From Lachnospiraceae bacterium Phil5 (lineage in GTDB: Bacteria; Bacillota; Clostridia; TANB77; CAG-508), in the NCBI GenBank assembly GCA_002633185.1, contig NWBM01000002.1, forward strand, positions 209,640 through 273,639: a stretch of DNA of 64,000 bases. The letters run 5' to 3'. Both the position numbers and the translations under genes were made by a program. Of the stretch, positions 13,896-36,373 are shown piece after piece; the stretch's first letter is position 1; each line of letters opens with the position of its first letter. The notes under the pieces were generated by a model. It searched no databases. It saw nothing but the letters and a program-made list of their open reading frames with translations, and was not told the DNA's origin.

Positions 13896-13920
13896 GGCCT
13901 TAGCTTATTTTTCTACCTAA

Positions 13921-14037: not shown

Positions 14038-14215
14038 AAGAAACACCTCCAATCGTTTTCTCAAAATTATTATGTGAAAAAATTAAAAAATTATACAAAA
14101 ATAAAAAATTTGAAAAAAAGAATTTATAAAATTCTATTGACTAAAATAAAATATTATATTTTAATAATAAATGAAGAAAATAACAAGAAAATTAAATGAA
14201 AGAAGAGGAAAATTA

Positions 14216-14857: not shown

Positions 14858-14869
14858 GGAGGTTTATTT

Positions 14870-19488: not shown

Positions 19489-19584
19489 ACGCTAGACAAA
19501 TATAATAATTTGTAGTATAATATATTTTATGTGTTATATACACAAACATTTTATAGCCATAACTATGGCAGAAAGGAAGAACAA

Positions 19585-21023: not shown

Positions 21024-21145
21024 TAACGTTGGATGAATATATTAATACGCAGTAAGTGCGCAGTTTGGCGCCTCTAAAAGCCGTCTTTCTCCCAAATCCA
21101 ATCGCCAGCAAACGAACGAAGTATTAATATATTCATCCAACGTTA
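21024..21145. repeat. 122-bp hairpin element: perfect 25-bp AT-rich inverted repeats flanking a 72-bp GC-richer core
   Basis: TAACGTTGGATGAATATATTAATAC at 21024-21048 and its exact reverse complement at 21121-21145. The core continues the pairing (GTTTGGCG / CGCCAGCAAAC). Confidence 0.8.
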
Positions 21146-21660: not shown

Positions 21661-22636
21661 TTACATATCTGCCAAAGGATTGCTTTCAACAGCATTACGT
21701 ACTTGTTCATTTGCAACGTGTGTATATATTTCAGTAGTAGAAATACTTTCATGTCCTAATAATTCTTGTAAAGCTCTAATATCTACGTTACCATATTGAT
21801 ACATAAGAGTAGCAGCTGTATGTCTTAATTTATGTACAGAATATTTATTTGAGTCTAATCCAGCACGACGTAGTTCTTGTTTAACTATGTATTGAACAGT
21901 TCTATTACTAATACGTTCTTTACGTTCACTTAAAAATAAAGCATCACGAGAATCGTTTTTAACGGCATCATGTGGCCTAATAGTTAAATAACTATTAATA
22001 GCATTCATACAAGCTTTATTTAAGTATATAGTGCGTTCTTTGTTACCTTTACCAATAACTGTCATTTTACAATCATTAAAATTTATATCTTTCATATTAA
22101 TGCCAACTAATTCAGAAAGACGCATACCACAATTTAGGAATAATGTAATAATAGCAAAATCTCTCTCTTTGTTCCTGTCATCTATATTAGTAGCCGCTTC
22201 TAGGAGTTTTTTGCTATCATCTAAAGATAAGTATTTAGGAACACGTTTATCTTGTTTTGGAGTCTCTAAGTTCTGCGCTGGATTCTTTTCTATTAAACCG
22301 TGCCTTGCTACACATATAGTTAAAGAACACACGAATACTTGCCGTTTTTCTAGCACGAGTAGCGGCTTTACTTTGAAAATTATTCTTTAAATAGAACAAA
22401 TATGCATGTATATCTTCAAGCTTTATTTTAGCAACCGTATCTATACTCATATCATGAATATCAATTTCTTTTATATCTTTCTTATCTGTCATTCTAAAAT
22501 GCATGAGAATGAATTTTAAGAAGTTATTTAAGTCATAGTTGTATTCCTTGATAGTGTTAGGTGATTTATTTAAAATAGTAGCTGTATAATCTAAAAATGA
22601 ATTTAAAAAATATGGATTTCCTTCTGTATTTATCAT
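21661..22636 (-). pseudogene. XerC/XerD-type tyrosine recombinase, split by a frameshift
   Basis: The N-terminal ORF (22247-22636) ends ...IRVFFNYM. The C-terminal ORF (21661-22356) continues GLIEKNP... in another frame and carries R (GMRLSEL), K, HKLRHT and LGHESISTTEIYTHV. Confidence 0.8.
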
Positions 22637-22782
22637 AAAAAAATCAGTCCTTTCTTTTGTAAAAATAGTATTATCTTAAGCAAATTTTATAATTAGTTTT
22701 AAAAAAAGTCAATATATGTAGTAAAGAAAGAAGCCTTCACTATTGGTTAGTGAAAGCTCCCTCTTTTTAAATTTGAGTATTC

Positions 22783-22932
22783 TTACTGGTCTTCATCACG
22801 ATCGTCATACGCTGCCTTATAATCAGCCGCTACTTCGTTTCCGCAGATAGGACATACAATGAAAGTAGCACCATCTGATGCTCTTCCACTAATTTCTTCT
22901 CCGCATGCAGGACAATTCATGTTGTATTCCAT
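22783..22932 (-). CDS. 49-aa zinc-ribbon protein (CPAC...CPIC)
   Basis: AGGAGGTA SD, ATG at 22932, two CxxC pairs and a hairpin downstream. Below the ORF-track cut-off. Confidence 0.5.
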   Translation of the reverse strand: MEYNMNCPACGEEISGRASDGATFIVCPICGNEVAADYKAAYDDRDEDQ

Positions 22933-23146
22933 AATAGAATACCTCCTTTTTAATGTTGCGCAAGCAGTAATACCACTTACATAGACCTAGTTAGTAGTAT
23001 AATATGGAAGAACCACAATACACTCTAACGCTTAATATGTTACTTAATGACTTTGTCATCTTATAACGTTAAATATTATATCACATATTTAAATTAATTG
23101 CAATATTACACATAATTGAACGAACAATAACAATATAAAAAAATTG

Positions 23147-23212
23147 CAAAAATAACGACGCACGAGAATCGATTTTAAGGCGTTTTTAAAAATTAGGCAT
23201 ATAGTTTGTTGT
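23147..23212 (-). repeat. inverted partial copy (box iii) of the island's AT-rich repeat, copy r1
   Basis: About 65 bp, near-identical to 24714-24778. Its reverse complement aligns with AAAACAACAA..TATATG.CT..TTTT.TAAAAA.G.CTTAAAA of copies c1-c5. Confidence 0.7.
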
Positions 23213-23340
23213 CTGCAAAAAGCTACCATTTATTGAAATATAAGCATTTTCAAGATTTTCAAAAAATTATATTTCAAGTTGAAAAAAATTTTTTAGTATG
23301 TTATTATTTTTTTGATATTATATAAAAAGGAGAAAATGTT

Positions 23341-24159
23341 ATGGGATTATTTAGTAAAAAGTATTGTTGCCTATGTGGCGAAAAAGTTGGATTATTAGGT
23401 GGACTAAAATTAAAAGATGGAGACCTATGTAAAGAATGTAAGAAAAAATTATCTCCATTTTTCGATGATGGAAAAGAATCAACAGTTGAAGATATAAAGA
23501 AACAAATTGCTGCTAGAGAAGAAAATTATAAACAATTAGATAATTTACAAATCAATAAAATATATGGAGAGTTTGGAGTTATATTAATTGATGAAACAAA
23601 TAAAAAGTTTGTTGCAGTAGCAGATACAAGTGATGGTTTGTTTAAATCTCCTAAAGTAGTTAAAAGCATTGAAGACATTAAAGATAAAAATCCTGATATA
23701 ATAGATTTCAAGGATATTGAAGATGTTGATATAAAAATAATTGAAACAACAAGAGAAGAAAAACAAACTATAGATGGACAGCAAGTTAGCTATGATCCAA
23801 AGCATTATACTTATATGATTGGTTTTGATGTAATTATTAAAGTAAATCATCCATATATTAAAACAATAAGAATAAGTCTAAAGAATGGAACTGTACAAAT
23901 TTATAATGAAGGAAGAAGATTAAAAGATGACTATGTAACTGGATTTATAAGAGATAGATTTGGAATAACAAGAGTTGAAGACAGAGCTGTTCACTACGAC
24001 AATTTAACAATACAAAATATTGTATCTAATGCTATGAAAGAAATGCCTGAATATTCATTTGGTTTTAAATGTACATTAAAGAATTATGACAGTATTAGAG
24101 AATATGCTTATTATTTAGCTTTATGTGATGATATAAAAACAACATTATTAAATAAATAA
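23341..24159 (+). CDS. DUF4428-like protein with N-terminal zinc ribbon
   Basis: N-terminus MGLFSKKYCCLCGEKVGLLGGLKLKDGDLCKECKKKLSPFF, which fits my recollection of the DUF4428 pattern. Good SD. Confidence 0.5.
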   Translation: MGLFSKKYCCLCGEKVGLLGGLKLKDGDLCKECKKKLSPFFDDGKESTVEDIKKQIAAREENYKQLDNLQINKIYGEFGVILIDETNKKFVAVADTSDGLFKSPKVVKSIEDIKDKNPDIIDFKDIEDVDIKIIETTREEKQTIDGQQVSYDPKHYTYMIGFDVIIKVNHPYIKTIRISLKNGTVQIYNEGRRLKDDYVTGFIRDRFGITRVEDRAVHYDNLTIQNIVSNAMKEMPEYSFGFKCTLKNYDSIREYAYYLALCDDIKTTLLNK

Positions 24160-24164
24160 TAATT

Positions 24165-24197
24165 TAAATTTCCACTTTTTATAGTGGAAATTTTTTT
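24165..24197 (+). terminator. intrinsic terminator
   Basis: AAATTTCCAC-loop-GTGGAAATTT hairpin followed by a T-run. Confidence 0.65.
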
Positions 24198-24199
24198 GT

Positions 24200-24640
24200 T
24201 TTTGTGCAAAGAAGCGGAAGAGTAGGGGAGGTAGAGGCATTTTGAAAGATAATAAAATAAATTTTAAATAATTTTAATAAATTGATTAAATAAAATTTTT
24301 TCAAAAAAGAAATAGGGAGAATAGACAGAATAAAATTTATACAAATAAAAAAATTTATAAAATAATTAAAATCAAAAAATTAATTTTAAAATTTAAAATT
24401 TAAAATTTTTACAAATTTATTTTTAAAATTTTTATGCGAACATTTGTGTTAAAAATATTTTTTTACAAAATTCTAAAATCTGATTTAAAAATTTTATTTT
24501 TGGATTTTTTTTAAATAAAATTTTATAGTATAAGTTTATAATTAAAATTATATTCAGACGTCTCAAAATCGTTTTTAAGACATTTATATTATTTAGACAT
24601 CAAATTATATATATAAATAATTTCGGATACTATTTTTTTA
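24200..24640. repeat. scrambled AT-rich repeat-derived segment
   Basis: Contains box i TTTTGTGCAAA (24200-24210), inverted box ii GTAGGGGAG (24222-24230) and an inverted box iii-like segment near 24573-24588. Confidence 0.4.
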
Positions 24641-24713
24641 AATAATTAAAACTGGTTATTTCTATGAAAAAAACTGATATAACTTGGGTTTCTAAGGAAC
24701 TCCTAAAAAGTGC

Positions 24714-24886
24714 CAAAATAACAACGCACGAGAATCGATTTTAAGGCGTTTTTAAAAATTAGACATATAGTTTGTTGTTATTAAGATAAACTTAATATAG
24801 CAAAAAGCGTGATATAGCAGTAATTATAAGGTATTAGTTGATATAGGCCTATATATAATTTTTGTCCTACCCCTATTTGCACAAAA
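24714..24886 (-). repeat. short inverted copy of the AT-rich repeat (r2)
   Basis: Inverted box iii at 24714-24778 and inverted box i TTGCACAAAA at 24877-24886, abutting copy c1 head-to-head. Confidence 0.6.
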
Positions 24887-24887
24887 C

Positions 24888-25255
24888 TTTCATTTTGTGC
24901 AATGTTATATTTCGGTTTTTGGTACCCTATATAGAGATAATTTTAAAAATTTTCCTACCTCTCTTCTATCACTTTTTAGCTTCTAACATGTAATTACCAA
25001 AATTAAATTTTATTCATTTTATATTTATTATTTTATTATTCTGATTATATTTTCTTTTCCAAACTCATTTTTTACTTTTTGAAAAATATTTTTATAAATT
25101 TAATTTTTATTTTTAATTTGTAAAAAATTAATCATTATACTAAAAATTACTATTTTTCTCCCCTACTTCTCAAATTCGTTAAAATTCAAGAAATTATAAA
25201 ACAACAAGTTTATATATCTTTTTTATAAAAATGTCTTAAAACTCATCCTTGTTCT
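24888..25255 (+). repeat. AT-rich cassette repeat, copy c1
   Basis: Boxes CTTTCATTTTGTGCAATGTT ... TTATACTAAAAATT.CTATTTT.CTCCCCTACTTCTCAAA ... AAAACAACAAGTTTATAT..CTTTTTTATAAAAATGTCTTAAAA. Confidence 0.8.
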
Positions 25256-25332
25256 TATTAAAATGTATTATAAATAATAAACAAGACTCTCAATTTTGGA
25301 TTGAAAGTCTTGTTTATTTGGTCAGTAATTTT

Positions 25333-25563
25333 TTACTTAATGATATACTTGGCAAGTTCTTTAGCTGCCTTTGCAGATTCCAGTTTGCCACGTTCAATGT
25401 TTCGACGCACGATTGGTAAGTTTCGCATATATTTTGCATTTACCATGCTGCGTATGGCTTTGGGTTTAGACTGCATTGGCTCATCTAAACAAGAATCCCA
25501 TACAAATTCTCTAGGTTCATCTAGACATGGATTCCGAACCATTTTTTGGGGCTTGTTGCTCAT
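25333..25563 (-). CDS. small basic protein (76 aa), third gene of cassette A
   Basis: GAGGTG SD before ATG 25563. No family recognised. Confidence 0.5.
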   Translation of the reverse strand: MSNKPQKMVRNPCLDEPREFVWDSCLDEPMQSKPKAIRSMVNAKYMRNLPIVRRNIERGKLESAKAAKELAKYIIK

Positions 25564-25573
25564 GTCAAACACC

Positions 25574-25759
25574 TCACTTAAATTTATGACGTTTGCTCCT
25601 CATTGTTACAGAACTATCTTGCTTTAACCTGTTAGCTTCATCAAGCTCTTTTTGCAGTCTTGGCAAAGCTCTTTTCTCTGAAGCAATCAGTTCGCCATAC
25701 CGAGGAACATGTACTGTAGCAATTGTAAAGCTGATTTTGGGCTTTTCACTAGTTTCCAT
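25574..25759 (-). CDS. 61-aa basic protein (METSEKPKI...YGELIASEKRALPRLQKEL), paralog of 28729-28914
   Basis: GGAAGG SD before ATG 25759. About 70 percent identical by eye to the cassette B copy. Confidence 0.6.
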   Translation of the reverse strand: METSEKPKISFTIATVHVPRYGELIASEKRALPRLQKELDEANRLKQDSSVTMRSKRHKFK

Positions 25760-25782
25760 AGAATTTACCTTCCATTCATATT

Positions 25783-25995
25783 TTAGCAACAACCATGGGT
25801 TTTAGCCCAAACTGATGCATCTGCATCGTTTTCACGTTGCTTTTTGCATTTTTCAGCTAGTTGTCTGTTCGTTTTTGCAATCTTTTCAGGATCAGCAGGA
25901 ACAACCTTTGCACGTTTTAGTGGAACTCCTGGACATAAATCACGCATTTTTCCATTAGGTAAGTGTATATACCTCTTTTGACGAATTATTTTCAT
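25783..25995 (-). CDS. 70-aa basic protein ending KTHGCC, paralog of 29137-29349
   Basis: GGAGGA SD. MKIIR.KRYIHLPNGKMR.LCPGV is conserved in both copies. Confidence 0.65.
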   Translation of the reverse strand: MKIIRQKRYIHLPNGKMRDLCPGVPLKRAKVVPADPEKIAKTNRQLAEKCKKQRENDADASVWAKTHGCC

Positions 25996-26179
25996 TTACG
26001 TTTCCTCCGAATTTAGGTTGTAAGCAAGTAAGCTGACCTTCTTACTAACTTATGGCTTTGTTAGTGCTGAACACGAATATATGCAAATTCTGCATTATTC
26101 CACTAACCTGGACTATATAAACAGGCTAAGTGCCTGGAATTTATGGATTTATATTATCATCTTTTATGTAAAATGTCAA
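25996..26179 (-). promoter_or_regulatory. island promoter plus conserved structured leader, copy A
   Basis: TTGACA (26174-26179), 17 bp, TAATAT (26151-26156), then a leader of about 150 nt shared with copies B, C and D. Confidence 0.7.
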
Positions 26180-26190
26180 TTTTTTAATTA

Positions 26191-27306
26191 TTATCTTTCT
26201 TCTTCTCGTTCACACAATTCTTTATTATAAACATCTCTTGCACTTTCATATGGTATAAAATTAAAATCAAAATAAGTGTAATACCCTCCTTTAGGTAAAC
26301 TTAAATATGTATTAATTTCATTATTTGCTTTTTCAGAAATTTCATTAATTCTAACTGTTCCATCTTCAGTTAATACTAATGGCACAACATATCTTGTTTT
26401 TGCCTTAACATTTACACAGTATTTATCTTGTATCTTGCTATTACTTTGATACACCGTATTAGCATTTTGGAATTTTTTGAAACTTTCTGATAAATAACTA
26501 TCTTCGCAATTCAAAAACTTATTAATTATTTCACTTTCAGATAAACTATATAAGTCATCAATGGTTAAATATCCCGCATTGTTCATAGATTTACACATAT
26601 CTGCTAAAAATTGCATAACTGTTCTATCTTTATCGCTTACCCATTCAGGCCATAGCTTTGATATAATACTAATATATTCTTCACATACTTCCTTATCTTT
26701 AAATACTAGTTCATCTATTCCATATTCATTTTTTGCAATTGTTATATTATTATATATCTTTCTTATTTTGTCTAATTCCCAAACTCTAAAGAATGTTAAT
26801 CCACTTGCAAATGTATATTCAAATCTATCTGCAGATAATTTTGGTGTATCATTATCTGCTATTGGATATTTTTTATAATCATCTACATCTTGTAATTTTA
26901 TACCATCTCTTTCAAGTAACCACATTATTCTTTTTGAATTTTTAATGATATCTGTTGTTCTTTCTTCAGTAGATTCTTGTGTTTCAGAGTCTCCATTCAT
27001 AAAGTCAATACAGTGTTTGAATACTGGTGTTGCAATATCGTGAAACAATCCTGCTAAAGTTTGTTTTTTATCATGCGTGAAATTCCATATAATAAGTGCA
27101 ACACCTACACTGTGATCTAAATTAGAATACCAGTATTTAACGTTGAAACATTTAGAATAATCTGTTCCACAACTCATACTAATTTTACCTATTCTTTCCA
27201 TTTCTGGAGTATTAATATATTCCAAGAGCCATTCTGGAAATTCTGGCGATAATATACTAAAATATTCTTTTACTTCGTCATTTAAATTATTATAATAGTT
27301 GTTCAT
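26191..27306 (-). CDS. HD-domain phosphohydrolase-family protein (371 aa)
   Basis: The HD signature GLFHDIATPVFKH and an upstream His in the N-terminal half. Own promoter TTGATA, 17 bp, TATAAT near 27340-27370. Confidence 0.7.
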   Translation of the reverse strand: MNNYYNNLNDEVKEYFSILSPEFPEWLLEYINTPEMERIGKISMSCGTDYSKCFNVKYWYSNLDHSVGVALIIWNFTHDKKQTLAGLFHDIATPVFKHCIDFMNGDSETQESTEERTTDIIKNSKRIMWLLERDGIKLQDVDDYKKYPIADNDTPKLSADRFEYTFASGLTFFRVWELDKIRKIYNNITIAKNEYGIDELVFKDKEVCEEYISIISKLWPEWVSDKDRTVMQFLADMCKSMNNAGYLTIDDLYSLSESEIINKFLNCEDSYLSESFKKFQNANTVYQSNSKIQDKYCVNVKAKTRYVVPLVLTEDGTVRINEISEKANNEINTYLSLPKGGYYTYFDFNFIPYESARDVYNKELCEREEER

Positions 27307-27424
27307 TTAAATTACCTCCATCTTTTTTGTATTATATCATAAATATTTTAATATATCAAGAAGCGGATTTAAATGCTGCATAAAAAAAATTTGACATATA
27401 ATATAATGGTGTTATAATAATATT

Positions 27425-27488
27425 AGCATTGTAATGTAACCGATTCATGCTGACAATTGATATGTGTGTGATGACACATATCTTTTTT
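27425..27488 (+). ncRNA. predicted small RNA 1 (module 1)
   Basis: TTGACA (27391-27396), 16 bp, TATAAT (27413-27418). Internal hairpin UAGCAU/AUGCUG and terminator GATATGTGT-loop-ACACATATC plus a T-run. The 5' half is conserved at 31824-31890. Confidence 0.5.
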
Positions 27489-27571
27489 ATATAAAAAAAA
27501 GGTAACAGAATATAAATGATGTATGAAAAATTTTATTTGACATATAATAAGAATGATGCTATAATAATTAT

Positions 27572-27647
27572 AGCTTAAGCAAATGTTGTTTTGTATAACC
27601 ATATAACAACACACTAGATATGTGAGGAGAACACATATCTTTTTTTT
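27572..27647 (+). ncRNA. predicted small RNA 2 (module 1), antisense to the neighbouring small-ORF initiation region
   Basis: TTGACA (27537-27542), 17 bp, TATAAT (27560-27565), and terminator GATATGTG-loop-CACATATC plus T8. 27592-27614 repeats 27780-27804 on the same strand, so it is complementary to the convergent mRNA. Confidence 0.55.
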
Positions 27648-27701
27648 GCTCAAAAAAAGAAACAGAGCAGGGAGAAACTGCTCTGAACTACTATGTAGTT
27701 T

Positions 27702-27800
27702 TTAGTTGTCATTGTTGTTCTGATACTTTTTCAATTCTTCATTTAATCTTGCGATTTCTTGAAGAAGAATCCATATCAATGTATAACCATTTATAACAAT
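27702..27800 (-). CDS. candidate small toxin-like peptide (module 1), start codon unclear (TTG 27779 or ATT 27800)
   Basis: Promoter TTGTAT (27870-27875), 17 bp, TATAAT (27847-27852); SD AAAGGGGG; terminator hairpin 27664-27686. ...GYTLIWILLQEI...NNNDN resembles the module 2 peptide. No canonical ATG in frame. Confidence 0.3.
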   Translation of the reverse strand: MVINGYTLIWILLQEIARLNEELKKYQNNNDN

Positions 27801-27950
27801 ACACCCCCTTTCTTTCAAGGGATTGTCCAAATACATGGACCTTTTAATTATATCGTAAAATCGACTCAAATACAATGACTATTCTGTGAGTTTTGTAATT
27901 TATTTTTCGACATATTTTTTATTAAATAGTAAAAATTTTGTTTCGATATT

Positions 27951-28432
27951 AAAGTGCGACATTTTTCGAAAAACGCATATTTTATTGATACATGTAAAAT
28001 ACATTGTTTGTTTATTTCAATACCGTTTTGGGATTTTTACACTCTTTAATTTTTCTAAACTTATATATAAAATTTACCTCATAGAAAATAGTCTTATTAC
28101 TTTCATTTTGTGCAATGTTTCATATCGGATTTTGATACCCTGTATCATGTAATTTACAAAATTTAATTTTATTCATTTTATATTTATTATTTAATATTTT
28201 ATTATATTTTCTAGGTTAGATTTTGTTTTCCAAACTTATTTTTACTTTTTTACTTTAAAAAATTATTTTATATAATTTCTTTTTATTTTTTAATTTATAA
28301 AAATTTAATCATTATACTAAAAATTGCTATTTTACTCCCCTACTTCTCAAACTCATTAAAATTTAAGAAATTATAAAACAACAAAGTTATATGTCTTTTT
28401 TATAAAAATCTCTTAAAATCCATCCTCGTTTC
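27951..28432 (+). repeat. AT-rich cassette repeat, copy c2 (with ~150-bp 5' extension shared with c5)
   Basis: Same three boxes. The extension AAAGTGCGACATTTTT...TTCTAAACTTATATATAAAATTTACCTCATAGAAAATAGTCTTATTAC is near-identical to 34239-34388. Confidence 0.8.
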
Positions 28433-28524
28433 TATAATATAGGAAACTATTTAACGTTTAACCATATAACAAAATAGAGTATTTACTGTAAAGTAAGTAC
28501 TCTATTTATAGGTCAGTTGTTAAA

Positions 28525-28719
28525 TTAGTCTGAATATGTTTCATCGGCAATTTTCATTGCTGTTTGTGATTCTGTTCGGTGTTGCTTAGCTGAACGTGAT
28601 ACTCTCTCGTTTATACGCTCTGCAGTTTGAACATCTAAGCTTTCAATTCTAATAGTTCTGCCTTTGCAAGATTTCTTTTTAAGAAGAGAGCCAGAGCTAT
28701 ATTTGTTTTTATCTTCCAT
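28525..28719 (-). CDS. 64-aa hypothetical protein (cassette B, last gene)
   Basis: AGGAGGGA SD. Unrelated to the cassette A third gene. Confidence 0.55.
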   Translation of the reverse strand: MEDKNKYSSGSLLKKKSCKGRTIRIESLDVQTAERINERVSRSAKQHRTESQTAMKIADETYSD

Positions 28720-28728
28720 ATGTCCCTC

Positions 28729-28914
28729 CTATTTCCTTTTACGATGTCGACTCATCATGGTTCTATGGCTTTCCACCTTTAACCGATTAGCGTCGTTAAG
28801 TTCTTTTTGCAATCTTGGTAAAGCTCTTTTTTCACTAGCAATAAGCTCACCATAACGATGACAAGGAATTACAGCTTTCATTGATTCAATCTTGGGTTTC
28901 TCACTAGTTTCCAT
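28729..28914 (-). CDS. 61-aa basic protein, paralog of 25574-25759
   Basis: GGAGGG SD and conserved YGELIASEKRALPRLQKEL. Confidence 0.6.
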   Translation of the reverse strand: METSEKPKIESMKAVIPCHRYGELIASEKRALPRLQKELNDANRLKVESHRTMMSRHRKRK

Positions 28915-28920
28915 CAGAAT

Positions 28921-29118
28921 TTACCCTCCATTAACAAAATGTTTGAATTGCTTTTTTACTGCCGCATTATTTGCTTCTGTCTGAATTGATATTTGGTTTT
29001 CAAGAAAATAAGCTGCTTTTGATGATATCTGTCCTTTAGGTGGTTCAATAATTTTTCTTGTGCTGCTGGATTGCAGAAGTTCTTTAGGTATAAACCGTTT
29101 TATATTAGAGTCTTTCAT
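28921..29118 (-). CDS. 65-aa hypothetical protein (present only in cassette B)
   Basis: AGGAGG SD. No family recognised. Confidence 0.5.
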   Translation of the reverse strand: MKDSNIKRFIPKELLQSSSTRKIIEPPKGQISSKAAYFLENQISIQTEANNAAVKKQFKHFVNGG

Positions 29119-29136
29119 ATAGATACCTCCTAAGCA

Positions 29137-29349
29137 TCAACAGCAACCATGAGTTTTAGTCCAAACTTTTGCTTCAGCATCATTCTCACGTTGCTTTTTG
29201 CATTTTTTAGCTAGTTTTTTGTTCGTTTTGGCTATCTTTTCAGGATCAGCAGGAATAACTTTTGCGCCTTTTATTAGAACTCCTGGACATAACTCCCGCA
29301 TTTTTCCATTAGGTAAGTGAATATACCTTTTGGGGCGTATAATTTTCAT
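29137..29349 (-). CDS. 70-aa basic protein ending KTHGCC, paralog of 25783-25995
   Basis: AGGAGG SD. More than 80 percent identical by eye to the cassette A copy. Confidence 0.65.
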   Translation of the reverse strand: MKIIRPKRYIHLPNGKMRELCPGVLIKGAKVIPADPEKIAKTNKKLAKKCKKQRENDAEAKVWTKTHGCC

Positions 29350-29536
29350 TAATGTATCCTCCTAATTTAAGGTTGTAAGCAAAGTAAGCTGACCTTCTTA
29401 CTTGCTATGGCTTTGTTAGTGCTGAACACGAATATCTGCAAATTCTGCATTATTCCACTAACGCTTACTATATGTAAACAGGCTGTTTGCCTGGAATTTA
29501 TGGGATTATATTATCATCTTTTATGTAAAAAGTCAA
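29350..29536 (-). promoter_or_regulatory. island promoter plus conserved structured leader, copy B
   Basis: TTGACT (29531-29536), 17 bp, TAATAT (29508-29513), then the conserved leader. Confidence 0.7.
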
Positions 29537-29630
29537 TTTTTCTATTGTGCTCTTACCAACAAGAATCTTTTGTATTTCGCTTTTTTGACTTTTATCGGAA
29601 TTTCCGACAAAAGATTAATGATTTTATTAA

Positions 29631-29670
29631 TAAAATAAAAAAGCCTAAAATTTTATATATTTCAGGCTTC
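29631..29670 (-). terminator. intrinsic terminator downstream of the Abi remnant
   Basis: AAGCCT-loop-AGGCTT hairpin with a T-run on the minus strand. Confidence 0.55.
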
Positions 29671-29673
29671 AGA

Positions 29674-29712
29674 ATGACTTAGAGCTTCTAGAGTTTTCTA
29701 AGTACCGTTCAT
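29674..29712 (-). repeat. structured direct repeat X1 flanking the Abi remnant
   Basis: ATGAACGGTAC-TTAG-AAAACTCTAGAAGCT-CTAA-GTCAT on the minus strand. The partner copy at 30360-30398 has compensatory stem changes. Confidence 0.55.
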
Positions 29713-29731
29713 TATTATTATATTCTAGTTT

Positions 29732-30321
29732 TTAATTATTATTCAAAGGAAAGCCCATTACAGATAAAATTGCATCTATTTTTATAGAATGTAAATTTTC
29801 TTTAAGTTTATCTATTTCATCATTTATAGAATTGCATAAATCTTTATATTGATCCTTTGTTAGTAGCTTTTCCATACATCTAATTACCATATATAAGTTA
29901 GTTATATTATCTGATTTTTCATAGTCCTTATCAATAAGTTTAAATGAAAGATAAAATTTACTAGTATAACTATATAATCTATCAGAGTGGGCTGCAATAT
30001 TTCTTACAGTAGATAAGTTTTTTAGTATTTGTTTTAATAACTTATCTGATATTCTAAAATACTTTGCAACTGCTTGTCTATCACTTTGCTTTAAAAGTCC
30101 ATAATAACTACTTGCTACTCCAAATGTAAGAACCTTTGTTAGAACAAATGGTGGTACAAATCCATATTTGTTTATGTAATGTGTTACTGCAGTATGAGTA
30201 TTATAATCCTTTTCGATTTCTGCATTTATTTTATTAAGCAAATTTTCTTTTATATTATTATTCTTACGCCTTTTGACTCCAAATAATCTATTAATTCTTC
30301 GTTAGTTCTATATTCTTTCAT
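29732..30321 (-). pseudogene. Abi_2 (AbiD/AbiF-like) abortive-infection gene remnant
   Basis: The 169-aa ORF carries FG....YY and VRNIAAHSDRLY, typical of Abi_2. A 23-aa N-terminal piece (MKEYRTNEELIDYLESKGVRIII, 30250-30321) lies in another frame, and the expected ~100 aa between the two pieces is missing. Confidence 0.6.
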
Positions 30322-30359
30322 TAAATAGTTAAACTCTCCTTGCTTTTATAGTAAAAAAA

Positions 30360-30398
30360 ATGACCCAAGGCTTCGAAAGTTTCTTGGATACCGCTCAT
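30360..30398 (-). repeat. structured direct repeat X2
   Basis: ATGAGCGGTAT-CCAAG-AAACTTTCGAAGC-CTTGG-GTCAT followed by T8, with a promoter-like TTGCTA, 17 bp, TATTAT just upstream. Confidence 0.55.
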
Positions 30399-30470
30399 AT
30401 ATATAATAGCATATTTTAAAGTAATTAGCAAGTACCTTTTATGAAAATGTTATGATTTTTGGAAACAATA

Positions 30471-30748
30471 CTTTCATTTTGTGCAATGTTATATTTCTCT
30501 TTTTGAGATGCTCCATTTCTAAATTTATATCCCTTCTCCATCATTCTTATATATAAATTTATTAAATTCTTTAAATGTTTTTTTAATTTAATTTTCATTT
30601 ATTAATTATTTTTGCTTCTCAAAATATTTTTCTCTTCAACTTAGTTTCTAATATAAAAAATTATTTTTGTAAATTTTAATTTTAAAATTTATATTAATTT
30701 AGTAATTTTAAAAAATCAACTTTTTACTCCCCTACTTCCTGAATCGCT
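30471..30748 (+). repeat. AT-rich cassette repeat, copy c3 (divergent, lacks box iii)
   Basis: CTTTCATTTTGTGCAATGTTATATTTC ... TTTTTACTCCCCTACTTCCTGAA. Confidence 0.7.
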
Positions 30749-30820
30749 AATATTTATTCATACTAAATAACGCAAAACGGAGTCTTATCCTCTAAGACTC
30801 CGTTTTGCGGCTGAAATAAA

Positions 30821-30874
30821 TTAACCGCCTGCTTCCTTATCAGCCACAATACCAGCATAAGCAATACCAGACAT
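30821..30874 (-). CDS. 17-aa ORF (MSGIAYAGIVADKEAGG) in a mini-cassette
   Basis: GAGAGGAAG SD, a perfect upstream promoter and a 16-bp-stem hairpin downstream (30772-30808). Coding status is unproven. Confidence 0.3.
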   Translation of the reverse strand: MSGIAYAGIVADKEAGG

Positions 30875-30976
30875 ATTGACTTCCTCTCAATCGTTAATTC
30901 TTTACAGCAAGTGTCTGAACACGAGCTTTTAAGCTCACACTACGATAATTATATAGCATAATATGTTCAATGTCAA
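30875..30976 (-). promoter_or_regulatory. consensus promoter plus short leader related to the island leader
   Basis: TTGACA (30971-30976), 17 bp, TATAAT (30948-30953). The leader shares CGTGTTCAG.CAC with leaders A-C. Confidence 0.5.
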
Positions 30977-30989
30977 ATAAGGACTTTTT

Positions 30990-31050
30990 TATTACATTCA
31001 TTATACTAAAAATTGCTATTTTATTCCCCTACTTCTTAAGTTTAGTGATA
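30990..31050 (+). repeat. AT-rich repeat fragment (box ii only), c3b
   Basis: CATTATACTAAAAATTGCTATTTTATTCCCCTACTTCTTAAG. Confidence 0.7.
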
Positions 31051-31112
31051 TTTTTTATAACAAATAAGAGTTTTCGGTTCAGTACGAAAACTCTTATAAA
31101 TATTTGATAATT

Positions 31113-31604
31113 CTACTTATCCCATGAACCAACAACAAAATATGGCACACCATCTATATTCCTATAGTAAACTCTGAAACCATAGGGCTCGCGAGATAAA
31201 ACCTGGACAATACCGACAATAACAATTTGAAACAAATCGTTTATCACTCTGATATCTGAGCCACAATATCCTTCGTGTGCAGTCAACAGTTCATCGAGAT
31301 TTTTTCCCCGAATTCCATTCTTGTCATCAGAAAACTTTGCTTCAAGCTTCTCAATAAGTTCTGTATCATCTTTATAACTGCTTGGAAACTTAATACTTGA
31401 GAACCGACCGTCGGCATCTTTGTCAAAAACTTCATCAAAAATATCTGCAAGTTTGAACTTACGCTCATTTCCTAAAAATCTTTCAGTTACCGGCAGATTT
31501 GCTTTTTCGAAGTGCTTAAGCACGATCTCAAGAAATGCCACTTTTTCAACAGAGCACCCTACATTATAAAGCAAGTAATCGGCTTTGAATATGCGATTAT
31601 ACAT
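31113..31604 (-). CDS. 163-aa hypothetical protein (cassette C cargo)
   Basis: GGAGGA SD and terminator hairpin at about 31055-31085. No family recognised. Confidence 0.6.
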   Translation of the reverse strand: MYNRIFKADYLLYNVGCSVEKVAFLEIVLKHFEKANLPVTERFLGNERKFKLADIFDEVFDKDADGRFSSIKFPSSYKDDTELIEKLEAKFSDDKNGIRGKNLDELLTAHEGYCGSDIRVINDLFQIVIVGIVQVLSREPYGFRVYYRNIDGVPYFVVGSWDK

Positions 31605-31779
31605 ATTTTTTCCTCCAATTATGGTTAGGCAAGTTTTTTTCTTAACTTGTATGGGCTTTGTTAGTGCTGAACACGAATATGCAAATTCTGCATTATTCCA
31701 CTAACGCTTACTATATGTAAACAGGCTGTTTGCCTGGAATTTATGGATTTATATTATCATCTTTTATGTAAAATGTCAA
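31605..31779 (-). promoter_or_regulatory. island promoter plus conserved structured leader, copy C
   Basis: TTGACA (31774-31779), 17 bp, TAATAT (31751-31756). Back-to-back with the sRNA1 promoter at 31790. Confidence 0.7.
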
Positions 31780-31823
31780 TTTATATGATTTGACATATAA
31801 TTAAATGGTGTTATAATAATATT

Positions 31824-31890
31824 AGCATTGTAGTGTAACCGATTTATAGTAATGCTTGATATGTGTGTGATGACACATATCTCTTTTTTT
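31824..31890 (+). ncRNA. predicted small RNA 1 (module 2)
   Basis: TTGACA (31790-31795), 16 bp, TATAAT (31812-31817). Same 5' sequence ATTAGCATTGTA.TGTAACCGATT and the same terminator stem as module 1. Confidence 0.5.
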
Positions 31891-31969
31891 ATAAAAATAT
31901 TAGATACACATAAATAAGGTATGAAAAATTTTATTTGACATATAATAAGAATGATGCTATAATAATTAT

Positions 31970-32037
31970 AGCTTAAGCAAATCATAGGATGTCACAAGAT
32001 TTGCATCGAGATATGTTCGTCGCATATCTCTTTTTTT
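31970..32037 (+). ncRNA. predicted small RNA 2 (module 2), antisense to the neighbouring small-ORF initiation region
   Basis: TTGACA (31935-31940), 17 bp, TATAAT (31958-31963), and terminator GAGATATG-loop-CATATCTC plus a T-run. 31982-32005 matches 32159-32182 at 19 of 24 positions on the same strand. Confidence 0.55.
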
Positions 32038-32082
32038 ATTTTAATTCAAAAGAAAAAGGCGGTCGTCGTCCGCCTTCAAAGA

Positions 32083-32172
32083 TTATTCTTTGTTTGTGCC
32101 TTGGTTTTCATTATCATTATTACTTAAAAGCAATAAGACAATTAATCGCCAGATTAGCTCATAGGATGTCAT
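32083..32172 (-). CDS. 29-aa hydrophobic peptide MTSYELIWRLIVLLLLSNNDNENQGTNKE, type I toxin candidate (Fst-like architecture)
   Basis: Promoter TTGTAT (32247-32252), 17 bp, TATAAT (32224-32229); SD GGGAGGTG; ATG 32172; terminator AAGGCGG-loop-CCGCCTT (32057-32077). Convergent with sRNA2. Confidence 0.45.
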   Translation of the reverse strand: MTSYELIWRLIVLLLLSNNDNENQGTNKE

Positions 32173-32358
32173 TCCTTTTGCACCTCCCTTCTGCAGGGAT
32201 TGTCCAAATACATGGACCTTTTAATTATATCGTAAAATTGACTCAAATACAATGACTATTCTGTGAATTTTGTAATTTGTTTTTCTAATAATATGTCGAA
32301 AAATGACATTTCGATAACTATTTTCAGCTTGTTATTTTTGTATTATAAAATGTCCGAT

Positions 32359-32725
32359 TTCTTTCATTTTGTGCAATGTTATGTTTCGGATTTTGGTATA
32401 CTCTATATCGATAAATTTAGAAATTTTTGTACCCCCTTCTATAGTTATTATATATTTATATATGATTATTAAAAATTATTTTTTATTACTATTTATATTT
32501 ATTGTTTTATTTTTTCTAATTATATTTTCTGTTTTAGATTTTCTTTTCCATAATTATTTTTAATTTTAAAAATTATTTTATAAATTTTATTTTTGTTTTT
32601 AAAAATTTATTCATTATACTAAAAATTCTTATTTTTCTCCCCTACCTCTTAAATTCATTAAAATTTAAGAAATTATAAAACAACAAGTTATATGTCTTTT
32701 TTATAAAAATGCATTAAAATGCATT
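32359..32725 (+). repeat. AT-rich cassette repeat, copy c4
   Basis: All three boxes are present. The ORF-track ORFs here are not frame-conserved between copies. Confidence 0.8.
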
Positions 32726-32770
32726 TCCATAAGTTTGTCAATAAGAAAAATATATTAATATGTAGTTTCA

Positions 32771-33088
32771 TTAAAATACTTCATACGTCGGATATTTTAA
32801 CAGTAAACTTTCATCATTTAAGTCAATTTTTTTATTATATAATAATTTGTAAAAATAGTCTTTTGAGATTAATTGTTTATATACTATATCTATTTTTTCT
32901 TCATTTATTTCTAACGCCTTCAAAAGCTGATAGGCTCTTTTTTGAGTAATCTTAAAAAAAAGAGCTTCATCTTTTAACATATTTCTTATTTCAAGATTTA
33001 TAGTGCAATCTACTCCATTATTAGTTTTAAAATCAATATTTGTTTCATTCATAATATTAATACATTCAAAAATATTTACATCATCCAT
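32771..33088 (-). CDS. 105-aa hypothetical protein, translationally coupled to the upstream gene
   Basis: AAGGAG SD before ATG 33088. The ATGGATGA overlap spans the stop of 33081-34112. Confidence 0.55.
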   Translation of the reverse strand: MDDVNIFECINIMNETNIDFKTNNGVDCTINLEIRNMLKDEALFFKITQKRAYQLLKALEINEEKIDIVYKQLISKDYFYKLLYNKKIDLNDESLLLKYPTYEVF

Positions 33089-34112
33089 AATAAACAATCT
33101 CCTTTGCAATTTCGCTTCTATTTTTATTTGGTAAATACAGTCCATCTTGAATATTATCAAAAAACTTTCTTGAACTAATTAATTCTACACCTAATGAATT
33201 TATTATTATGTAATTCATATTCCAAGCTATATATAAAGTTTGAATATATTTATCGCCAACTTTTAGCCAAATCTTTTTAGGTTCATAACCTTTAAGTTCA
33301 AGTATAGGCTTTATATATTTAAATACTCCATCATTACCAGCATTCTTTGTTTTGCTTAGCAAAATATTCATCCACTCATATTCACCATTTTTTTCAAAAT
33401 CTTCCATAATTTCTTTTTCAAACTCTTTTTTAGGCTTTCTATTTAAATTGAATTTATCAACTGCTTTCTTAACAATGTCTTTTTCATCATTAACAATTGT
33501 AATTCCTTTTATTTCTAATCCTAATTTTGCTCTATTTAAATCTTCACCTTTTACAAAATCATCACAATCAATAGTAATCATGAAATCGTCACATATAATA
33601 CCTGTAGCATAATGAGACTCATATTCATCAGATACCAAAAAAATATCGCATTCTTCATTCGTTAATTGTTTCATTCTAAAAGCAAAATATCTAGATAATT
33701 CAAAACATATTCTCCTATTATGTTTTTTTCTCTCTTCTATCCATCTGCTATTGGGATTTCTTCCATATTTTTGGTCAATAGTGCATATATTTTTCTCTCT
33801 ATCATATTTTCCTAAAAAATAACAAAATTCATCAAAAACAAAATGTTCACATACCATACAATGAACTATTAAGATTTTTTCAATTAAGCTTAGTTGATCC
33901 AAACCTTCGATTTCATGTATTTTATCTACAATTGAATCATCTTCTGTTTTCCAAGCCACATAATCATATTGTATTCTTGAATCACCTATTTCTTCTTGAT
34001 CTTCAGGATCAACTTTTATTTTACACCAGTTCATATGATTTGTAATTCTTTTTAATGCCTCTAGAAATTCTTTTCTCTTTTCTTCTTTGTTCATTAGTTT
34101 TTTATCCTCCAT
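33081..34112 (-). CDS. ~340-aa hypothetical protein, weak transglutaminase-like Cys-His-Asp pattern (start probably ATG 34094)
   Basis: RRICFELSRYF ... SHYATGI ... ITIDCD spacing recalls transglutaminase-fold cysteine proteases. This is inference only. Confidence 0.55.
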   Translation of the reverse strand: MEDKKLMNKEEKRKEFLEALKRITNHMNWCKIKVDPEDQEEIGDSRIQYDYVAWKTEDDSIVDKIHEIEGLDQLSLIEKILIVHCMVCEHFVFDEFCYFLGKYDREKNICTIDQKYGRNPNSRWIEERKKHNRRICFELSRYFAFRMKQLTNEECDIFLVSDEYESHYATGIICDDFMITIDCDDFVKGEDLNRAKLGLEIKGITIVNDEKDIVKKAVDKFNLNRKPKKEFEKEIMEDFEKNGEYEWMNILLSKTKNAGNDGVFKYIKPILELKGYEPKKIWLKVGDKYIQTLYIAWNMNYIIINSLGVELISSRKFFDNIQDGLYLPNKNRSEIAKEIVYYG

Positions 34113-34238
34113 ACAATAACTTTTATTTTAATTATATTCTAAATTAAAATAAAAAAAATGGCAATATAGCTTTTAAGTATTTTTACAATAATTTCTTCGT
34201 AACAAATTATAAGTGAGCAGTATTATAATAGTCATATT

Positions 34239-34760
34239 AAACTGCGACATTTTTGCAAATTGCATGTTTTATTCATACAGGTGAAAATGTCCTACGTGCT
34301 TATTTCAATACTATTTTGAGATTTTTACATTTCTTAAATTTTCTAAACTTATATATAAAATTTACCTCATAGAAAATAGTCTTATTACTTTCATTTTGTG
34401 CAATGTTGTATTTCGGTTTTTGGTATGCTCTGTATTGATTAATTTTAAAATTTTTGTACCTCTCTTCTATCTTTATTATATATTTATATGTAATTGTTAT
34501 AAATTATCTTTTATCTAAATTTATATTTATTGTTTTGATTTTTCTAATTACATTTTCTATATTAGATTTTCTTTTCTAAACTTATTTTTATTATTTAAAT
34601 ATTATTTTATAAATTTTATTTTTAATTTATAAAAAATAATCATTATACTAAAAATTGCTATTTTACTCCCCTATTTCTCAAATCCATTAGAATTAAAGAA
34701 ATTATAAAACAATACAAACATATATGCTTTTTCTGTATAAAAGTCTTAAATTGATTTAAA
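34239..34760 (+). repeat. AT-rich cassette repeat, copy c5 (with 5' extension shared with c2)
   Basis: All boxes plus the extension. Confidence 0.8.
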
Positions 34761-34873
34761 AGATGATGAACTTGGATTTAGTAACAATAAAAAAGACAGA
34801 ACAAAAAATATTTCACTCTGTCTTTTTTCAATTATTCAGTTTCTTAGAATTTTTAATTGTATGAAAATATTTC

Positions 34874-35554
34874 CTATATTTTAGTAACACTTGAAGAAAT
34901 CATTATATCAGTTTCTAACATATTAATGGTAAAACGCACTTCATAATCTTCTTCATAATCTTCCCTTGTGGTACTCACCACACAGCATTCATCACAAACC
35001 TCTATACCATTAATAATACAATTATCCGTATCAATGTCAACATAAGTATAGTGTTCACAATCGTTAGTTGCTAAAATATACTTCTCTGTATAGAAGATTA
35101 AAAGCCCTTCACTTGAGAGAACAAGCTTCGGTTTTTTCAGCAACATTTTGAATATATTGTAGTTAGAAATTATATTGTGTCTTCCGATGTTGTCTGTGAT
35201 GTAAGCTACAGTAGTTGGTCCTACAAATTCAAATGGCATTTCTCTTTTCTTAATTGAAAAACGTTTTCCTTCGCAGACAGTTGATATAGTAATATTTTGG
35301 ATAAATCCATTAAGTCTGCAAGGAGATTCCAGCCCTGAATCTGAATTGCAACAATATACAACAATCGGGTATTCGCTGCAATACTGATAAATGTCATTAC
35401 CATCTACCAAAACTAATGAGTTTTCCTCAAACTGCTCCCATTCTTTCTCTGAAACAATACTTTCAGCACACATGGTAACTTGAGAATTTTCAATATACAC
35501 GTCTTCAGAGAACTCAATTACTCGTTCTACAATTGGAAATTTTTTCTTTTCCAT
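34874..35554 (-). CDS. 226-aa Cys-rich hypothetical protein (cassette E cargo)
   Basis: GGAGGGA SD and terminator hairpin at about 34790-34830. No family recognised. Confidence 0.6.
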   Translation of the reverse strand: MEKKKFPIVERVIEFSEDVYIENSQVTMCAESIVSEKEWEQFEENSLVLVDGNDIYQYCSEYPIVVYCCNSDSGLESPCRLNGFIQNITISTVCEGKRFSIKKREMPFEFVGPTTVAYITDNIGRHNIISNYNIFKMLLKKPKLVLSSEGLLIFYTEKYILATNDCEHYTYVDIDTDNCIINGIEVCDECCVVSTTREDYEEDYEVRFTINMLETDIMISSSVTKI

Positions 35555-35755
35555 ACCATCCCTCCAAATTATTGGTTAGCAAGTGTAATTGTTATTTACA
35601 ACTTGCATGGGCTTTGTTAGTATGCTGAACTCACACTAACTCTTACTTATATATCACTTGTTCTGAAACGCGGACTATCCAGTTCAACAAGTGAACCACA
35701 GGCATTTGCCTGGAATTTATGGATTTATACTACCACAGTTTTATGCAAATGTCAA
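35555..35755 (-). promoter_or_regulatory. island promoter plus conserved structured leader, copy D (variant with an extra hairpin)
   Basis: TTGACA (35750-35755), 17 bp, TAGTAT (35727-35732). Shares the 5' AAATCCATAAATTCCAGGCAAATGCCTG and GTTAGTG..ACTAACAAAGCCCAT segments. Confidence 0.65.
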
Positions 35756-35767
35756 ATAAATATTAAA

Positions 35768-36373
35768 TTAGTCATCTATTACATTTATTATTTGTTCTTT
35801 TGAAATAGGACCTTCTCTTAATATTTTAAGTTCATCCAAACTGCAATCGACTATTGTACTACTTTTACCAAAAACAACATTTCCATCCATCATTCCGTTA
35901 ATCATTGGACAAGCCTTTTCTATTTCATCTAAATTTGTACATGTTGGTTCTCCGCTTCTGTTAGCACTTGTCATAAACACTGGGCTTTCTGTCTTTCTAA
36001 TTAAATCCTCTAGTGCTTTTGAAGTTGCCATTCTAACCGCAATAGTATCTTTTCCATTACTTACATAACTAGGTAATTTACTATTCTTTTTTAATATAAG
36101 TGTTATTGGTCCTGGCATAAAAGCATGTATTAACTTCTCTGCATTTTTATTAACTATTGCAATGCTTCTTATTTGTTCTTCATCAGCACACATAATTGGA
36201 AAAGATTTTATTTTAGGGCGATTCTTTACTTCCATTAATCTATCATGTGCTTTCTTTGAACTTATTCTTGCACATATACCATAAACAGTATCTGTTGGAA
36301 CGCTAATTACGCCATCATTTTTTAATATATTAGCTAAATCATCAGTTTTATTTTGTTTATATCTTTCTATCAT
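35768..36373 (-). CDS. tsaC: L-threonylcarbamoyladenylate synthase (YrdC/Sua5 family)
   Basis: 201 aa with PTDTVYG, K.RP and SAN.SG motifs of the YrdC domain. Confidence 0.85.
   Translation of the reverse strand: MIERYKQNKTDDLANILKNDGVISVPTDTVYGICARISSKKAHDRLMEVKNRPKIKSFPIMCADEEQIRSIAIVNKNAEKLIHAFMPGPITLILKKNSKLPSYVSNGKDTIAVRMATSKALEDLIRKTESPVFMTSANRSGEPTCTNLDEIEKACPMINGMMDGNVVFGKSSTIVDCSLDELKILREGPISKEQIINVIDD

Follow-up and report, generated by a model that had tools for sequence, protein, structure and literature searches.

A putative tandem cassette array at a dif-like palindrome in the replication terminus of an uncultured gut Bacillota bacterium

We analysed a 64,000-nucleotide stretch of the genome of Lachnospiraceae bacterium Phil5 (contig NWBM01000002.1, positions 209,640 to 273,639; hereafter the window, with position 1 at its first letter), in which a 13-kb island of repeated units lies between a chromosomal xer recombinase gene and the core genes tsaC and rho. 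The units combine a leader with its promoter (L), an AT-rich repeat (R) and, in places, a third module (M). The island is probably a tandem array of five cassettes, C0 to C4, integrated site-specifically by tyrosine recombination at one side of a 28-bp palindrome at the replication terminus, and this palindrome is most likely dif. Comparison of the window with itself and with related contigs establishes the anatomy of the array, its position at the terminus and the exact breakpoints between strains. Contigs of relatives are given by an L with a three-digit number, as distinct from the leader.

A palindromic dif-like site at the replication terminus

On the minus strand, the 3′ end of each R reads ATTGCACAAAA-TGAAAG (also written AACATTGCACAAAAT-GAAAG-T) and is followed by an arm that differs from copy to copy. 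After the last R the second arm is an inverted copy of the first, giving a 28-bp palindrome with an 11-6-11 layout, ATTGCACAAAA-TGAAAG-TTTTGTGCAAA (24876..24903, read on the minus strand), our candidate for the chromosomal dif. It occurs once in the 64-kb window, against 0.02 copies expected, and folds into a perfect hairpin (z = -4.6). The other four R copies end in pseudo-sites, in which the conserved arm and centre are joined to a variable arm: S1 between C0 and C1 (34377..34404, arm TAATAAGACTA), S2 between C1 and C2 (32350..32377, arm AAATCGGACAT), S3 between C2 and C3 (30460..30487, arm TATTGTTTCCA) and S4 between C3 and C4 (28089..28116, arm TAATAAGACTA), all on the minus strand. Only 3-5 of the 11 positions in their right arms agree with the palindromic arm, and no hairpin forms from S4 and its flanks (z = +1.2). 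All five sites of the window share one strand and stand in direct orientation. A first-pass annotation of this DNA had laid out each unit from promoter and leader to repeat; the true boundaries are these 28-bp sites at the 3′ ends of R, not the leaders.

Cumulative G-C skew climbs to ~24.8 kb and falls after it, and gene orientation switches there too, so that the island abuts the replication terminus. Specifically, the cumulative G-C and purine maxima both lie at 24847, and strand polarity switches at 24843 in a 7-mer model trained only on positions 1-15000 and 36001-64000, outside the island; all three switches fall 30-35 nt from the palindrome. Across several lineages with differing flank content, the palindrome is also at the skew apex in 14 related contigs (L103, L105, L108, L111, L117-L122, L128, L131 and L133 among them), 15-65 nt from the apex or maximum, and in L131 and L133 it is next to rho. 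Core genes converge on the site: rho approaches on one flank, xer-ackA-uvrA on the opposite one.

Set against the dif of E. coli, the arms of the palindrome share 7-8 of 11 positions with the XerC arm and 8 of 11 with the XerD arm; the classical dif half-site pattern ATTATGTWAAHT showed no enrichment. In published work dif is defined as a terminus site of 28 bp with an 11-6-11 architecture (PMC5357621). Legionella offers an earlier example of a dif with perfect dyad symmetry, which also came to light through a mobile element imitating it (PMC9765430). On sequence and position, the palindrome at 24876-24903 is most likely the dif of this chromosome, where it would presumably act in dimer resolution.

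Site-exact breakpoints and natural insertions in related strains

A metagenome scan with a 21-mer from the leader returned 23 loci, onto which we mapped L, R, M and the window proteins. When relatives are anchored on xer and rho, the number and content of cassettes vary while L and R are kept, as the first-pass annotation had anticipated. L103 and L108 have the rho...xer locus as in the window with far fewer units, and in the near-identical strain L106 another cassette, not the palindrome, follows the last R. C4 and L106 align at 95.6% identity until 24886, the edge of the centre, where the alignment stops.

We then listed all instances of the site and compared their flanks pairwise. In 11 pairs the left flanks are 86-100% identical (eight at 100%) and the right flanks are unrelated, with divergence beginning 1-7 nt past the centre, and 1-2 nt past it in 9 of the 11. 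Another 10 pairs show the converse, identical right flanks and different left flanks; the right flank of S3 is joined to differing left flanks in L096, L103 and L108. A polymorphic base of the centre (C/G) goes with either flank, as expected if strands are exchanged on both sides of a 6-bp overlap.

Insertions at the site have also been caught in natural strains. L117-L122 represent six strains with an identical Xer protein and a common xer-LysM-flavoprotein-ackA-pta-uvrA side, whose other side is wholly different. L122 equals L118 plus a 4,214-bp cassette placed exactly at the site, with flanks 97-99.9% identical and with arm and centre duplicated (27 nt common to both junction alignments). 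This cassette carries an SLFN/AlbA_2 ATPase, an S51 peptidase, DUF4299, a recombinase fragment, an open reading frame (ORF) of 115 amino acids (aa) and R, and has no homology to the sequence that it displaced. L117 and L121 are identical rightwards of the site and unrelated leftwards. The reciprocal junction, consisting of a foreign arm, the centre and the palindromic arm, is found at large insertions in L123, L132 and L134, and there similarity to uninterrupted relatives begins inside the centre. The pairwise breakpoints, the natural insertions and the reciprocal junctions together show that site-specific recombination at the palindrome site occurs in nature, in several lineages. Metagenomic contigs could be mis-assembled at repeats; the junction logic nonetheless recurs across many independent samples.

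In L123 (8490-8530, on the 1.77-Mb contig of GCA_025992485.1), the hybrid junction TGATCGGATTA-TCAAAG-TTTTGTGCAAA stands in place of the palindrome. The other side of this junction is occupied by 8.5 kb or more of accessory sequence (CHAP, Y-family polymerase, DUF5131), and the junction does not coincide with the skew apex.

Among 80 tsaC-anchored genomes of related species, in which tsaC synteny is poor, L and R were absent except in same-species contigs. Scans of IMG/VR found no L or R motifs, and the order L-operon-R had no match in 72,556 plasmids and 50,697 phages.

Chromosomal and element-borne recombinases

The xer gene of the window (21661..22636, minus strand) is a pseudogene, orthologous to a conserved XerC/XerD-like chromosomal Xer of 324-329 aa whose intact orthologues are abundant in relatives. 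It had been described as a broken tyrosine recombinase, which is borne out by a +1 frameshift near 22303 relative to these orthologues. The exact N-terminal xer ORF has no record elsewhere, so that the frameshift is called from this assembly. The best profile matches of xer are XerC (245 bits) and XerD (230 bits). In all relatives an Xer-family gene lies 2-6 kb from the site.

Relatives also carry recombinase genes within the array. A truncated second Xer-like recombinase, 46-52% identical to xer, is found just upstream of the last R, and complete relatives have two Xer-like recombinases and a ~110-aa protein between R and a block termed D, described below. The ~10-kb cassette of L128 ends in D, a 341-aa Xer-like recombinase, a 304-aa tyrosine recombinase, a 115-aa ORF, R and the site, and the same trio of genes is present in the element abutting the palindrome in L131 and L133. 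In L132-L134 the trio lies ~5 kb from a tetracycline ribosomal-protection gene of the TetM/W/O/S family (L132:2150-4072, also in L133 and L134), which scores 1231 bits (cut-off 1100). Another array has a CatA-like acetyltransferase that falls short of its cut-off (L091:529-1182). Judged by this gene order, autonomous members of the family look like integrative elements that carry their recombinase genes beside an attachment (att) site made of R and core. Because complete relatives carry the recombinase pair and the window cassettes carry none, the latter would be non-autonomous or decayed derivatives.

The presence of two tyrosine recombinases beside R and att in complete elements brings up another reading of the palindrome, namely that it is an attachment site of this element family only, used by the family's own paired Xer-like recombinases, and that the true dif lies elsewhere in the terminus. 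On this reading the array would remain site-specific without exploiting dif and Xer. Insertions in L123, L132 and L134 destroy the perfect palindrome, and the host xer is frameshifted in the window, both of which would agree with such a role. We nevertheless consider it unlikely, since the site is within 15-65 nt of the polarity switch in 15 contigs from several lineages whatever its flanks, has the canonical 11-6-11 dif architecture and adjoins a conserved chromosomal Xer gene. Linkage of a recombinase gene to its site is known for difH and XerH. It has also been described for difSL and XerS (PMC5357621).

Repeat families and homologous exchange

Self-comparison of the window yields three repeat families, L, R and M, all within 24.86-35.77 kb; profile searches found no further copies elsewhere in the 64 kb, and none of L, R, M or D matches an Rfam family at the gathering threshold or at E <= 5. 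The claim of a repeated promoter and leader holds for the four copies of L (35768-35556, 31795-31610, 29549-29354 and 26194-25998, minus strand). Each consists of a TTGACA-17-TAATAT promoter and a ~150-nt 5′ untranslated region (5′UTR) that runs up to the Shine-Dalgarno sequence and start codon, with two conserved hairpins, one of them with compensatory AU-to-GC changes. The promoter and the first ~30 nt are invariant across the leaders compared. In metagenomic contigs, L precedes the operon of homologues of the small basic protein sb70, and L therefore looks like the native promoter and 5′UTR of the small-basic-protein operon. In the window it is also found upstream of the cargo genes o163 and o226, and 20 distinct leaders stand before at least six different first ORFs.

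R is the AT-rich repeat of the first-pass annotation, present in five copies of ~450 nt confined to the island (34847-34362, 32765-32320, 30904-30441, 28530-28074 and 25331-24864, minus strand), plus one fragment (31041-30996, minus strand), each with an AT-rich core between conserved blocks. R may be an accessory, arm-type part of the att site, because it always adjoins the conserved arm, has the recombinase genes on one side and the core site on the other in complete elements and contains conserved blocks, and because a minimal R tail of ~75 nt is enough at the innermost site of L108. A plasmid-type origin was also considered as a role for R, and polar replication-terminator sites as one for the D and R blocks.

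M accounts for the small RNA (sRNA) and small-peptide module that had been noticed in two units. It is present in two copies (28140-27331 and 32399-31749) and one partial copy (34428-34126), all on the minus strand, and contains one small minus-strand peptide gene and two plus-strand sRNA-like units. We compared M with type I toxin-antitoxin modules, which pair a small hydrophobic toxin ORF with an overlapping or complementary antisense RNA. The M peptides, of 29 and 44 aa, have short hydrophobic stretches. The tandem sRNA-like units lie at 27391..27650 on the plus strand (second copy 31790-32030), with perfect TTGACA/TATAAT promoters at 27391-27418 and 27537-27565 and hairpin terminators at 27459-27482 and 27616-27640. 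These units are convergent with the peptide gene and do not overlap its mRNA, and the pairing predicted between them and either the leaders or the mRNA of the M peptide does not clearly outdo that of shuffled sequences. Hairpin terminators had been proposed as part of the unit layout, and we count 24 terminator-like hairpins against 2.9 expected.

The D block lies on the other side of the palindrome. D2 (24705..24778, minus strand), a block of ~55-74 nt, is ~100 nt from the palindrome on the xer side, and D1 (23139..23212, minus strand) is its direct repeat. D is an inverted homologue of the 5′ block of R; every relative has it next to the site, 100-450 nt past the palindrome, which places the terminus site inside a large imperfect inverted structure. 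What lies beyond D varies between strains (L118 vs L121), and a fold test gave no significant secondary structure for D. The conserved D block reads ACAACAAACTATATGTCTAATTTTTAAAAACGCCTTAAAATCGATTCTCGTGCGT. The core of D is similar to coding sequence in the interior of xer (..DSRxxLFL.., 21932-21962), and D also occurs upstream of element-borne recombinase genes.

Homologous exchange between these repeats has left traces as well. The window and L108 are 96.7% identical through the AbiD gene and leader until 29345, the cargo start codon, past which L108 has a different cargo and then the next R. L106, for its part, joins sequence of the window cassettes C2 and C4 in a mosaic inside M. Cargo is therefore also reshuffled by homologous recombination in L, M and R. 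It could be asked whether segmental duplication and homologous recombination among L, R and M, in a recombination-prone terminus, would explain the island with no site-specific recombination. The swap of the C3 cargo at the leader/cargo junction and the L106 mosaic would suit this, as would the long homology between units (24977-26197 vs 28136-29554 at 67-87%) and the match between the M copies near 27 and 31 kb. We regard it as very improbable, given that breakpoints fall at one 6-bp centre in at least 20 pairwise comparisons, with unrelated sequence 1-7 nt later (mostly 1-2 nt), that the L122 cassette lacks homology to the sequence displaced, and that reciprocal hybrid junctions exist. Judging from these junctions, homologous recombination cannot by itself produce site-exact joints.

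Cassettes and cargo

All five cassettes are read on the minus strand. Four of them (not C1) have the complete order of L, cargo, terminator and R; the shared layout reported earlier thus stands, and the count of at least five such units does not. C0, the innermost (34388..35767), comprises L (35768-35556), o226 (35554-34874), a terminator (34828-34789) and R (34847-34362), and the same-species contigs L001 and L002 have the order tsaC-L-o226-R. C1 (32361..34387) comprises the partial M (34428-34126), o343 (34112-33081), o129/o105 (33160-32771) and R (32765-32320), with no L.

C2 (30471..32360) comprises M (32399-31749), L (31795-31610), o163 (31604-31113), a terminator (31097-31064), the R fragment (31041-30996), an inserted mini-unit and R (30904-30441). 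The mini-unit (30771-30976, minus strand) lies within the R of C2, between duplicated copies of an R block (31041-30996 and 30738-30711). It has a perfect TTGACA-17-TATAAT promoter (30976-30948), a short leader-like stretch, a 17-aa ORF (MSGIAYAGIVADKEAGG) and a terminator (30809-30771) with a 17-bp stem.

C3 (28100..30470) comprises an AbiD/Abi_2 ORF (30241-29732), a terminator (29670-29640), L (29549-29354), small-basic-protein operon B (29349-28525) and R (28530-28074). The AbiD/Abi_2 ORF, noted earlier as a remnant, has an internal deletion and retains the C-terminal half; L108 has an intact 291-aa Abi. C4, which adjoins the candidate dif (24887..28099), comprises M (28140-27331), a 371-aa HD-like gene (27306-26191), L (26194-25998), a small-basic-protein operon (25995-25333), a terminator (25318-25276) and R (25331-24864). 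The two small-basic-protein operons, with three or four genes each, are diverged copies of one another, as the first-pass annotation had stated.

Most of the cargo is orphan by sequence comparison. Proteins of 163, 226, ~340 and 105 aa had been listed as orphans, and o226, o343, o129 and o163 indeed had no match in Pfam, NCBIfam, PHROGs, PADLOC or PDB sequence searches. The same databases gave only a weak HD match for the 371-aa protein, and three small basic proteins gave nothing meaningful in NCBIfam, PHROGs and PADLOC. The AlphaFold model of sb70 (predicted local distance difference test score 76) has a beta-hairpin and a long helix, with no meaningful fold match in PDB, and its homologues are metagenomic only. 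As regards the defence-island resemblance suggested by the first-pass annotation, PADLOC reported in the window a truncated AbiD, the sole match to a defence family, and one weak hit, and arrays of relatives include SLFN/AlbA_2, Fic and RhuM genes.

On the other side of the palindrome, a DUF4428 gene (272 aa, 23341..24159, plus strand; PF14471 E = 6e-14; phrog_888) is transcribed towards the site. Inverted repeat fragments had been described around it; D is indeed inverted relative to R, and the two D copies that flank the gene are direct to each other (95% identical over 74 nt).

A proposed model of cassette capture at the probable dif

We propose that a circular cassette carries an att site made of one dif arm and the 6-bp centre (ATTGCACAAAA-TGAAAG) together with a cassette-specific second arm. 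In the circle, the ~450-bp AT-rich R would precede the conserved arm and centre. Recombination with dif would insert the cassette, leaving a crippled hybrid site on its inner side and rebuilding a perfect dif on its outer side. Because the perfect site is rebuilt on the outer side, cassettes would stack in one orientation, with the newest beside dif. The degenerate arms at S1-S4 would stabilise the integrated cassettes, by analogy with the gonococcal genetic island (GGI) and the Legionella element LME-1 (PMC5357621, PMC9765430). Since the window cassettes lack a recombinase, they would need mobilisation in trans, and we infer that recombinase-bearing elements or the neighbouring chromosomal Xer may act on the site and move them. 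L and R may in addition serve as portable homology, so that cargo between them could be swapped by homologous recombination.

A wider proposal is that dif acts as an integron-like capture site in this clade of uncultured gut Bacillota, with R-tagged, promoter-bearing half-dif cassettes excised, exchanged between strains, re-inserted and mobilised in trans, by elements with their own pair of Xer-like recombinases or by the host Xer. If so, the system would be new to the literature, and in relatives it neighbours tetracycline-resistance genes. We offer the proposal tentatively, as a serious possibility that we would stop short of calling probable.

Several observations weigh against the array model. 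The window cassettes carry no recombinase gene and the island holds no intact one, and with xer frameshifted the array may be frozen. Terminal overlaps that would mark a circular cassette (an excision circle) were absent among the contigs. C0 has no upstream site, and may therefore be resident chromosome rather than a cassette. The DUF4428 segment is bounded by the direct D copies, not by dif-like sites, an arrangement that the model does not explain. The palindrome differs from the Bacillus-type dif. Finally, hybrid junctions replace the perfect palindrome in some relatives; there, either a hybrid site is sufficient for dif function or the real dif is located elsewhere.

Genomic surroundings

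The window has a G+C content of ~27%. Left of the array lie ackA, a flavoprotein gene, a LysM gene and xer; right of it are tsaC, rho, divIC, yabQ and yabP. The core gene tsaC (Sua5/YciO/YrdC, 35768..36373, minus strand) bounds the array. Same-species contigs are short pieces only (GCA_965313995.1 and Logan SRR22536472), and the closest TsaC proteins, at <=77% identity, come from uncultured gut 'Clostridia' metagenome-assembled genomes and from Clostridium sp. CAG:440 and CAG:343.

Other features of the window were observed outside the array. RNase P RNA class A (275 bits, 59211-59560, minus strand) is the sole Rfam match at the gathering threshold. A perfect 25-nt inverted repeat with a 72-nt spacer (21024-21048 / 21121-21145) lies between the flavoprotein and LysM genes. 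A 253-aa protein (19531-20292, plus strand) has an N-terminal membrane anchor, a long Thr-rich linker and a C-terminal domain, and is kept near xer in L103. Between D1 and xer, a 49-aa ORF (22783-22932, minus strand) has two CxxC pairs and is zinc-ribbon-like. In L117-L122, a full acetate kinase gene and two adjacent fragments (160 and 239 aa) at ~12300-15000 suggest a split second copy.

Comparison with known systems

The first-pass annotation had likened the island to an integron or defence-island cassette platform. What stands of this is a tyrosine-recombinase platform with repeated boundaries and variable, promoter-equipped cargo; as in an integron, small cassettes are gathered in one orientation, at a single primary site, through a tyrosine recombinase, and cassette number and content vary between strains. 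In contrast to integrons, there is no IntI, no attC hairpin and no attI or common promoter Pc, and the cassettes have their own predicted, near-consensus promoters. The least credible reading is a true integron, with xer as its integrase and the AT-rich repeats as attC: a recombinase gene does stand at one edge of unidirectional cassettes with repeated 3′ boundaries, but xer scores 103 bits on the integron-integrase model TIGR02249 (cut-off 265) and matches XerC and XerD best, the recombinase is orthologous to a conserved housekeeping Xer, each boundary consists of half a dif site and does not fold, and the cassettes bring their own promoters.

If the model is right, dif-targeted gene capture, as in integrative mobile elements exploiting Xer recombination (IMEX) and dif modules, reaches from Proteobacteria to abundant uncultured gut Firmicutes. 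The site and its neighbour would provide a candidate dif and Xer partner for a clade in which, as far as literature searches show, neither has been described. The terminus would be a hot spot of accessory-gene turnover between conspecific strains, whose cargo in relatives includes the TetM/W/O/S-family gene, the weak CatA-like match (below cut-off), Fic, Schlafen-like ATPases and Abi. A testable handle on directionality, at a site that the cell needs for chromosome segregation, would come from R together with the pair of Xer-like recombinases that the elements encode. A full-text literature search for IMEX in Firmicutes returned only a general review, and a dif-targeted cassette array in this bacterial group is apparently undescribed so far.

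The dif (pdif) modules and 'dif module islands' of Acinetobacter are also small accessory modules with 28-bp 11-6-11 Xer sites, arranged in multi-module arrays and shuffled between replicons (PMC6449649, PMC13141974, PMC12907356). Their cargo includes toxin-antitoxin, Fic and resistance genes (PMC6449649, PMC13141974, PMC12907356), and 'dif module islands' have recently been described on chromosomes (PMC6449649, PMC12907356). Acinetobacter modules have inverted sites and are mostly plasmid-borne, whereas here all five sites are direct and end at the terminus site itself, and the array is chromosomal with no plasmid match. LME-1 and the XerL-dif system of Legionella (PMC9765430) resemble the array in that dif is recognised through a mimic on a mobile element, in that the site, with arms of ~10 bp and perfect dyad symmetry, lies at the G-C skew maximum, and in that integration leaves one intact and one modified site, stabilising the insert. 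LME-1 is a single element, in contrast to the multi-cassette array described here, whose site sequence is different and whose Xer is of the XerC/XerD type, not XerL.

Its position at the replication terminus groups the platform with IMEX elements (PMC5357621, PMC6744903) as well as with dif-module arrays. IMEX likewise integrate at the terminus dif; of the two Xer-binding arms, their att site retains one, along with the central region, and has diverged in the other. An integrated copy lies between a good and a degenerate dif, to which the palindrome and S1-S4 correspond here, and several elements may stand in tandem at dif. The array differs from IMEX in its host, an uncultured low-GC gut Bacillota lineage, in the perfect palindromy of its site and in cassette size, 1.4-3.2 kb here as against phages or large islands. 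Each cassette also has a conserved ~450-bp AT-rich R beside the arm that is kept, and complete members of the family encode an Xer-like pair of their own, whereas classical IMEX have none and rely on the XerC/D of the host.

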